Source: Escherichia coli
GTDB taxonomy: Bacteria > Pseudomonadota > Gammaproteobacteria > Enterobacterales > Enterobacteriaceae
DNA: 5,353 bases
Assembly: GCF_003334315.1 (NCBI RefSeq)
Contig: NZ_QOWR01000096.1
Reading direction: 5' to 3' (one strand)
The number at the start of each line of letters is the position of its first letter. Within the stretch, counting starts at the first letter, position 1. The notes under the pieces were generated by a model. It was not told the origin of the DNA. It saw nothing but the letters and a program-made list of their open reading frames with translations, and did not search any database. The position numbers were made by a program, and so were the translations under genes. Below, in pieces: positions 2,467-5,276 of the stretch.

Positions 2467-2492
2467 AAAAAACCCCCGCTTTGCAGCGAGGG
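2467..2492 (-). terminator. Rho-independent terminator of the tRNA-Ala transcription unit
   Basis: Minus strand reads CCCTCGCT-GCAA-AGCGGGGG followed by TTTTTTG: an 8-bp GC-rich stem (one G-U pair), 4-nt loop and 6-T tract, starting 9 nt after the tRNA 3' CCA. Confidence 0.75.
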
Positions 2493-2501
2493 TTGGAAAT
2501 T

Positions 2502-2577
<76 letters not shown>

Positions 2578-2609
2578 GTCACGTAAAGCTTGTCGAGTTG
2601 ACGGGCGGC

Positions 2610-2638
2610 ATCATATGAATTCCGCCCGAATGTGTCAA
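2610..2638 (-). promoter_or_regulatory. Promoter of the tRNA-Ala gene (-35 TTGACA, 17-nt spacer, -10 TATGAT, GC-rich discriminator)
   Basis: Minus strand reads TTGACA (plus 2633-2638), CATTCGGGCGGAATTCA, TATGAT (plus 2610-2615), then GCCGCCC. This is a consensus -35 with a 5/6 -10 and the GC-rich discriminator typical of stringently controlled stable-RNA promoters. The predicted start is roughly 20-25 nt upstream of the mature tRNA 5' end. Confidence 0.6.
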
Positions 2639-2748
2639 CGGCAAATTGCAACGTGTAGTTTCAATCGCTGAAAAATCAGGCAAATGAACAATTTTGGAAA
2701 ACCGCTCGCATTCAGTAGTTATTCATGTCACGGTTTCCTGTAAAGTGG

Positions 2749-3551: not shown

Positions 3552-3593
3552 ATAAAAAACGGCAGGATATTATCTCCTGCCGTTTATCTTTTT
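3551..3593. terminator. Bidirectional rho-independent terminator shared by convergent yfeD (+) and gltX (-)
   Basis: Perfect 11-bp stem AAACGGCAGGA (3557-3567) / TCCTGCCGTTT (3575-3585) with a 7-nt loop. It is followed on the plus strand by ATCTTTTT and on the minus strand by TTTTTTATTT. It lies between the yfeD stop (3551) and the gltX stop (3603). Confidence 0.8.
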
Positions 3594-5165: not shown

Positions 5166-5231
5166 CACGGTCTGTTTTGCGATCATCTTGCTTAAATTTA
5201 CGACGAACGAACAATTTCTTTAGAAAATGCG

Positions 5232-5259
5232 TTGACTCATTTTGAACTCTCCCTATAAT
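5232..5259 (+). promoter_or_regulatory. valU tRNA operon promoter (-35 TTGACT, 16-nt spacer, -10 TATAAT, GC-rich discriminator, AT-rich upstream region)
   Basis: Plus strand has TTGACT (5232-5237) and consensus TATAAT (5254-5259), followed by the discriminator GCGACTCC. The tRNA begins at 5277, about 10 nt past the predicted start. Upstream 5190-5231 is AT-rich (UP-element-like). Confidence 0.8.
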
Positions 5260-5276
5260 GCGACTCCACACAGCGG

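Follow-up and report, generated by a model that had tools for sequence, protein, structure and literature searches.

The window, that is, the whole 5,353-nt stretch of Escherichia coli DNA analyzed here, carries at positions 2597 to 2639 three overlapping inverted repeats that lie directly on the promoter of a tRNA-Ala gene, which raises the question of whether this symmetry marks a regulatory element or is a by-product of the promoter itself. The initial annotation of the stretch had proposed a binding site for a dimeric regulator or a structure-prone element, with chance overlap with promoter hexamers as its fallback, and it is this fallback that the evidence favors. The stretch is very probably the core sigma-70 promoter of the E. 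coli alaWX tRNA-Ala(GGC) operon, a promoter of the stringent type, with the symmetry arising as a by-product. The alaWX promoter is already known and is an ordinary stable-RNA promoter, and the nested symmetry over it is, judging from the orthologous sequences, incidental and largely Escherichia-specific. Only the standard promoter parts are conserved, and this indicates that the symmetry is a by-product of these parts rather than a regulator binding site. The symmetric stretch was accordingly listed as a composite of promoter parts and not as a unit of its own.

The alaWX locus and its promoter

The locus corresponds to the pdeA(yfeA)-alaX-alaW-yfeC-yfeD-gltX-valU neighborhood of E. coli, which was found in 5426 of 5426 complete E. 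coli genomes. In K-12 MG1655 (NC_000913.3), the symmetric stretch lies at 2,518,251 to 2,518,293, directly upstream of alaW. The 123-nt promoter region around it occurs as a single copy per genome in all 5426 complete genomes, which rules out a repeated or mobile element at this site. Since this region is near-invariant within E. coli, with at least 99% identity in 5355 of 5428 E. coli records, within-species variation is uninformative. The tRNA-Ala(GGC) gene (2502 to 2577, minus strand) was identified by ARAGORN, by an Rfam tRNA match of 63 bits, and by the K-12 annotation (alaW/alaX), and an intrinsic terminator of the tRNA-Ala unit (2471 to 2494, minus strand), with a 10-pair stem containing 6 GC pairs and a T-run, was predicted by a terminator scan. 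In positions 2300 to 2900, no Rfam family except tRNA reached the gathering score, and the weak matches all fell on the tRNA 3' end and the terminator. Literature searches for alaWX by name found only a Fis-module listing and a tRNA-deletion study.

The window contains one tRNA-Ala(GGC) copy; K-12 and every E. coli genome among those listed carry the tandem genes alaX and alaW, an arrangement that is 115 bp longer. Over the full window, the best matches (E. coli C, WG5, and others) show 100% identity and align in 3 pieces over 5588 bp. The single copy in the window suggests a tandem repeat that was collapsed or recombined in the source sequence. One tRNA-Ala copy is also present in Escherichia whittamii, Pseudescherichia, some Enterobacter, and Atlantibacter. 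Two further elements were observed in the neighborhood. Upstream of yfeC, a conserved block at 2727 to 2760 contains gTGtTATAAA, an extended -10-like element, and is probably the yfeC promoter; it is separated from the alaWX -35 by about 115 bp and does not overlap the symmetric stretch. Between the convergent yfeD and gltX genes lies a hairpin at 3553 to 3592 with an A-run and T-runs on its sides (aaaaaacggcaggatattatctcctgccgtttatcttttt), which resembles an intrinsic terminator acting in both directions.

A promoter scan of positions 2300 to 2900 returned one match, on the minus strand, consisting of TTGACA, a 17-bp spacer, and TATGAT and matching the consensus at 11 of 12 positions. This confirmed the earlier promoter map, in which the -35 had been placed in an outer arm and the -10 in the center. 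The -35 hexamer (2633 to 2638) has the consensus sequence and overlaps the outer arm GTCAAC (2634 to 2639). The spacer (2616 to 2632) has two halves, a -10-proximal half, GGAATTCA (2616 to 2623), and 8 -35-proximal nucleotides, ATTCGGGC (2624 to 2631), which hold 4 of the 6 bases of the inner arm at 2622 to 2627. The -10 hexamer TATGAT (2610 to 2615) makes, together with the TCA that precedes it, the central palindrome TCATATGA (2611 to 2618), which overlaps 5 of the 6 bases of the hexamer. The discriminator GCCGCCC (2603 to 2609), 7 of 7 bases being G or C, contains the other inner arm (2603 to 2608), and the GC-rich inner arms had thus been correctly assigned to the spacer and discriminator of a tRNA-Ala promoter. 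All of these elements are read on the minus strand. A plus-strand promoter built on the inverted TTGACG (2598 to 2603) was rejected, having no -10 at 16 to 18 bp (TCCGCC or CCGCCC at that distance) and giving no match in the scan.

From the spacing to the -10, transcription would start at G2602 (K-12 NC_000913.3 position 2,518,256), 8 nt after the -10, or alternatively at C2603. A search of the supplementary text of one Cappable-seq study at the corresponding coordinates gave no entry. The tRNA-Ala 5' end lies 32 nt downstream of the -10, and the 25-nt 5' leader GUCAACUCGACAAGCUUUACGUGAC (2578 to 2602, minus strand), whose length is 22 to 25 nt among the orthologues, begins with six bases that constitute the outer arm at 2597 to 2602. 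The leader alone shows no stable fold (z = +0.27). Upstream of the -35, a Fis-like site, GCTGAAAAATCAGGC (minus strand, GCCTGATTTTTCAGC), is located at 2667 to 2681 within a conserved block (2666 to 2685) and is centered at about -71 or -72 relative to the predicted start. The 15-mer has the features typical of a Fis site, with G1, C15, and an A/T core, and these keep a constant spacing to the -35 in nearly all 79 of the promoters compared below. Fis may bind at 2667 to 2681. A RegulonDB-derived network groups alaWX with Fis-regulated stable-RNA operons (PMC544888, Table 2). The region from -40 to -60 is weakly A/T-rich, with no strong A/T-rich UP element evident.

This arrangement suggests how the promoter would operate. 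RNA polymerase holoenzyme would read TTGACA and the near-consensus TATGAT across the 17-bp spacer, and the GCCGCCC discriminator, with a C at -1 if G2602 is the start, would yield a short-lived open complex. Discriminators rich in G+C are the basis of the sensitivity of stable-RNA promoters to supercoiling and stringent control, and a C at -1 is associated with inhibition by ppGpp (PMC8422995). A short-lived open complex would tie the output of alaWX to ppGpp/DksA, to the initiating nucleoside triphosphate, and to negative supercoiling, so that ppGpp/DksA control of this operon is to be expected. The predicted Fis-like site near -71 would probably add growth-phase activation. Transcription would proceed from about 25 nt before the tRNA to the hairpin at 2471 to 2494, and the leader would be removed by RNase P.

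Geometry, chance, and conservation of the symmetry

The letters and coordinates given for the three repeats were exact, as seen by reading the sequence and from a repeat finder, which reported the outer arms GTTGAC (2597 to 2602) and GTCAAC (2634 to 2639) as I17, the inner arms GGGCGG (2603 to 2608) and CCGCCC (2622 to 2627) as I4, and the central palindrome (2611 to 2618) as I18; I4 extends to 2602 to 2611 and 2619 to 2628 at 90%. The elements of the "nested dyad" are therefore real, but they do not constitute one dyad. The axes of symmetry differ (2618 for the outer arms, 2615 for the inner arms, and 2614.5 for the center), and the spacing is not equal on either side, with 0 versus 6 nt between the outer and inner arms and 2 versus 3 nt between the inner arms and the center. 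Three different axes mean that there is no single two-fold site.

The number of perfect 6-nt inverted repeats with arms no more than 60 nt apart is 79 in the window, compared with 71.7 +/- 10.8 in dinucleotide-preserving shuffles. A nested arrangement of two 6-nt inverted repeats and an 8-nt palindrome occurred in 4.5% of the shuffled 5353-nt windows, with a mean of 0.068 per window, a rate that amounts to about 60 per E. coli-sized genome. The nested triple is thus uncommon locally and not clearly beyond chance.

To compare orthologous promoters, YfeC was used as the anchor, and an alignment of 15 homologues led to 80 syntenic loci, with one genome per species, from about 21 genera of Enterobacteriaceae. 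The promoter-proximal tRNA-Ala(GGC) gene with 110 nt of upstream sequence was obtained from 78 of the 80 loci, which together with the window gave 79 promoters. The -35 TTGACA is present in all 79, and the -10-proximal half of the spacer is likewise invariant (79/79). The -10 is TATTAT in 59, TATGAT in 19, and TATCAT in 1. Of the 79 discriminators, 74 read GCCGCCC, and the other 5 have G or C at 6 of 7 positions. GTCAAC is found at +1 to +6 in 77 of the 79, the exceptions being two Superficieibacter promoters with GTCTAC, in which the -35 is unchanged. The eight -35-proximal spacer bases are hypervariable, occurring in 45 versions in the 79 loci, such as ATTCGGGC in E. coli, ATGCGAAG in Salmonella and Citrobacter, and CTGGCGAA in Klebsiella, and in the conservation footprint, conservation within the core promoter is lowest at 2623 to 2631.

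The symmetry follows the fate of the parts on which it lies. The inner arms are fully complementary in 4 of the 79 promoters, those of the window, E. whittamii, Escherichia sp. E1V33, and one Enterobacter, and the inner arm is broken even inside Escherichia, with GGACGG in Escherichia albertii and AGGCGG at one further locus (L005). The central palindrome is kept in 19 of the 79 (Escherichia, Citrobacter, and Salmonella) and is lost in the other 60 because the -10 differs from TATGAT there, being mostly TATTAT. All three symmetries occur together in 3 of the 79. Over 16 pairs, no compensatory change was found (0), and the changes are one-sided: the spacer arm is altered in 25 to 36 of the 49 distinct sequences, with the discriminator fixed. 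The comparison of orthologous ala tRNA promoters, which the initial annotation had itself put forward as a check, therefore revealed that the symmetry is unconserved while the -35 is conserved, both for the inner arms (4/79) and for the center (19/79).

Each part of the symmetric stretch can be accounted for by the promoter. One outer arm is the -35, and the other is the conserved hexamer with which the transcript is predicted to begin. One inner arm belongs to the discriminator, the other to a spacer patch that is free of constraint and has this form specifically in Escherichia, and the palindrome is TCA joined to the TATGAT variant of the -10. Two side observations concern the spacer. Across about 21 genera, the -10-proximal half, GGAATTCA, does not vary even though a TG extended -10 is absent, and it appears to be under strong constraint. 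In E. coli CD306 (locus L084), one base pair is missing from the CCGCCC run (window 2622 to 2627), which would shorten the spacer to 16 bp; this may be a true variant or an error in sequencing the homopolymer.

The outer arms, retained in 77 of the 79 promoters, differ from the other two symmetries in their conservation. They could have been jointly selected if GTTGAC at the -35 and GTCAAC at +1 to +6 acted together, for example as a second, inverted -35-like contact for sigma region 4 or for another factor, and tuned promoter escape, an explanation that would fit their invariance across about 21 genera, including Atlantibacter, in which the discriminator between them has changed. Because both arms are invariant, however, they leave no covariation signal to test, and each of them lies within a wholly conserved block (2582 to 2621 and 2632 to 2647). 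The valU promoter of the same window, used as a control, is equally invariant without such a pair. The arm centers are 37 bp apart, which corresponds to about 3.5 helical turns and places them on opposite faces of the helix, an awkward arrangement for a dimer. In the two Superficieibacter promoters, one arm changed to GTCTAC with the -35 intact, and the inverted TTGACG is without a plus-strand -10 partner. In addition, the reverse complement of a 6-mer overlapping the -35 is expected within about 45 nt in a few percent of promoters by chance (approximately 4 registers x 40 positions / 4096). Joint selection of the outer arms is thus very unlikely, and their conservation is most likely that of the promoter parts to which they belong.

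Possible structure formation and regulator binding

The repeats might also act through structure, by forming a cruciform or hairpin under negative supercoiling that modulates promoter opening. As single-stranded DNA, positions 2592 to 2644 fold with -11.3 and -11.4 kcal/mol on the two strands (z = -2.3 and -2.5), values equaled by 4 to 8 of 200 shuffles, and the fold is mildly to moderately unusual compared with the shuffles without being striking, the more so as the pattern was chosen post hoc. The best fold, however, consists of stems of 5 and 7 bp with a 6-nt bulge and a loop of 9 to 13 nt, and cruciform extrusion requires longer, near-perfect arms. The 7-bp GC stem is present in 4 of the 79 orthologues and shows no compensatory change. 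Stable-RNA promoters are indeed sensitive to supercoiling, but this sensitivity of the promoter class is explained by the melting energy of the discriminator and not by hairpins (PMC8422995). With the stem so rarely present and no covariation, the suggestion of a structure-prone element is unsupported, and an extruded structure is highly improbable as the explanation of the symmetry.

A second possible structure would form in the leader RNA. A perfect 7-nt inverted repeat (I8; CCCGTCA/TGACGGG, 2575 to 2581 and 2599 to 2605) links the region of the discriminator and start with the final bases of the leader and the first three bases of the tRNA. In the RNA, CCCGUCA (2605 to 2599) paired with UGACGGG (2581 to 2575) would sequester the tRNA 5' end and influence processing by RNase P. 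The minus strand from 2560 to 2605 does fold with the I8 stem (-7.3 kcal/mol, z = -1.8, DNA parameters). With a start at 2602 or 2603, however, only GUCA would be transcribed, leaving a 4-bp stem, and the leader alone has no stable fold, as noted above. Moreover, the 3' partner varies among genera (GTGAC, GTAAT, GCGAT, CGTT, and others) while GTCAAC is fixed, which indicates that the I8 pairing is not maintained. The leader hairpin, which would be incompletely transcribed and is unconserved on the leader side, was rejected, and its probability is close to negligible.

The symmetry could instead be the operator of a dimeric factor that covers the alaWX -35 and -10, for which the products of the divergent genes yfeC and yfeD are the obvious candidates. 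Three overlapping inverted repeats lie on a promoter, and the two genes, which encode small helix-turn-helix (HTH) proteins, are about 160 bp away, with YfeD annotated as "MerR family" by PGAP. YfeC is reported to bind inverted repeats, and a ChIP-exo peak has been assigned to yfeC (PMC8464067). The repeats, however, share no axis, and the inner arm (4/79) and palindrome (19/79) are unconserved and without compensatory change. The 17-bp spacer also differs from the 19 to 20 bp of MerR-type promoters. The coordinates of NC_000913.2 and NC_000913.3 are offset here by 1978 bp. The YfeC site assigned to yfeC is at 2516052 to 2516085 in NC_000913.2, with a signal-to-noise ratio of 12.8 (PMC8464067, Dataset S4). 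With this offset, the peak appears to fall on the alaX 3' end and terminator (window positions of about 2491 to 2524), about 190 bp from the symmetric stretch. YfeD has no ChIP-exo site in the region (PMC8464067), and the intergenic region contains no copy of the reported YfeC motif TTC-N6-GAA, in which TTC-rich inverted repeats are separated by 6 nt. On the ChIP-exo lists and the missing motif, YfeC and YfeD were rejected as the binding proteins. With differing axes, unconserved half-sites, and no YfeC or YfeD ChIP-exo site on the stretch, the proposal of a dimeric-regulator site finds no support, and an operator at this position is extremely unlikely.

The YfeC peak itself appears to lie not on the yfeC promoter but over the terminator and 3' end of alaX, a highly transcribed gene. 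YfeC ChIP-exo targets also include the very highly expressed genes lpp, rpmH, rpmB, rplU, and rpsU (PMC8464067). It is possible that YfeC peaks at highly expressed genes are hyper-ChIPable artifacts.

Significance and comparison with known promoters

Read as the known alaWX stable-RNA promoter, the stretch has little import beyond housekeeping. The natural variation among the 79 genomes nevertheless works like a mutational scan of this strong tRNA promoter and provides a template for designing or annotating enterobacterial stable-RNA promoters. In this template, the -35, GGAATTCA, the discriminator, the first 12 or so transcribed bases, and the Fis-like site at -71 are invariant or nearly so, and the eight -35-proximal spacer bases are free to vary. 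The case also cautions against interpreting short nested inverted repeats on a promoter as an operator unless they share an axis and are conserved.

The features of alaWX recur in other promoters. Like alaWX, the tyrT promoter drives a tandem tRNA pair and has the -10 TATGAT followed by G, a G+C-rich discriminator (GCGCCCCGC in tyrT and GCCGCCC in alaWX), a GC-rich block in the spacer (GCGGCGCG in tyrT and GGGCGG in alaWX), and a short or imperfect inverted repeat around the -10. The GC-rich spacer and discriminator around TATGAT in tyrT indicate that a GC repeat of this kind can arise from G+C content alone. The tyrT promoter differs in its weaker -35 (TTTACA), its 16-bp spacer, and the interrupted complementarity between its spacer and discriminator (4 + 3 bp). 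In addition, the stringent, supercoiling, and Fis behavior of tyrT has been established experimentally (PMC8422995), whereas we infer it for alaWX.

The valU promoter of the valUXY-lysV operon (about 5225 to 5276) is likewise a stable-RNA sigma-70 promoter, with TTGACT, 16 bp, TATAAT, and GCGACTCC, and in 34 genomes its sequence does not change between about -40 and the tRNA. In contrast to alaWX, in which the -35-proximal spacer varies, the spacer of valU is constant throughout, and nested symmetry is absent from this promoter in E. coli. Such invariance without a dyad indicates that core promoters and leaders of stable RNAs are normally conserved base for base in this bacterial family. In most other genera, the valU spacer has GTTGACTCATTTTCAAC, which forms a 5-bp inverted repeat with the -35, and E. 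coli has GAAC there; this -35-linked symmetry is likely incidental.

MerR-type promoters resemble the alaWX region in having a dyad on the core promoter, and the divergent pair of small-HTH genes, with YfeD labeled as a MerR family member, adds to the resemblance. In MerR-type promoters, however, the dyad is centered in the long spacer, whereas in alaWX the axis of the inner arms lies in the -10. The rrn P1 promoters belong to the growth-rate-regulated, stringent class and combine near-consensus hexamers with a G+C-rich discriminator and a Fis site at about -71. The alaWX promoter shares the hexamers and the discriminator, and its predicted Fis-like site lies at a similar position. The spacers of rrn P1 promoters are 16 bp long, and these promoters carry several Fis sites and a strong UP element, whereas one conserved Fis-like site is evident in alaWX and its -40 to -60 region is only weakly A/T-rich.
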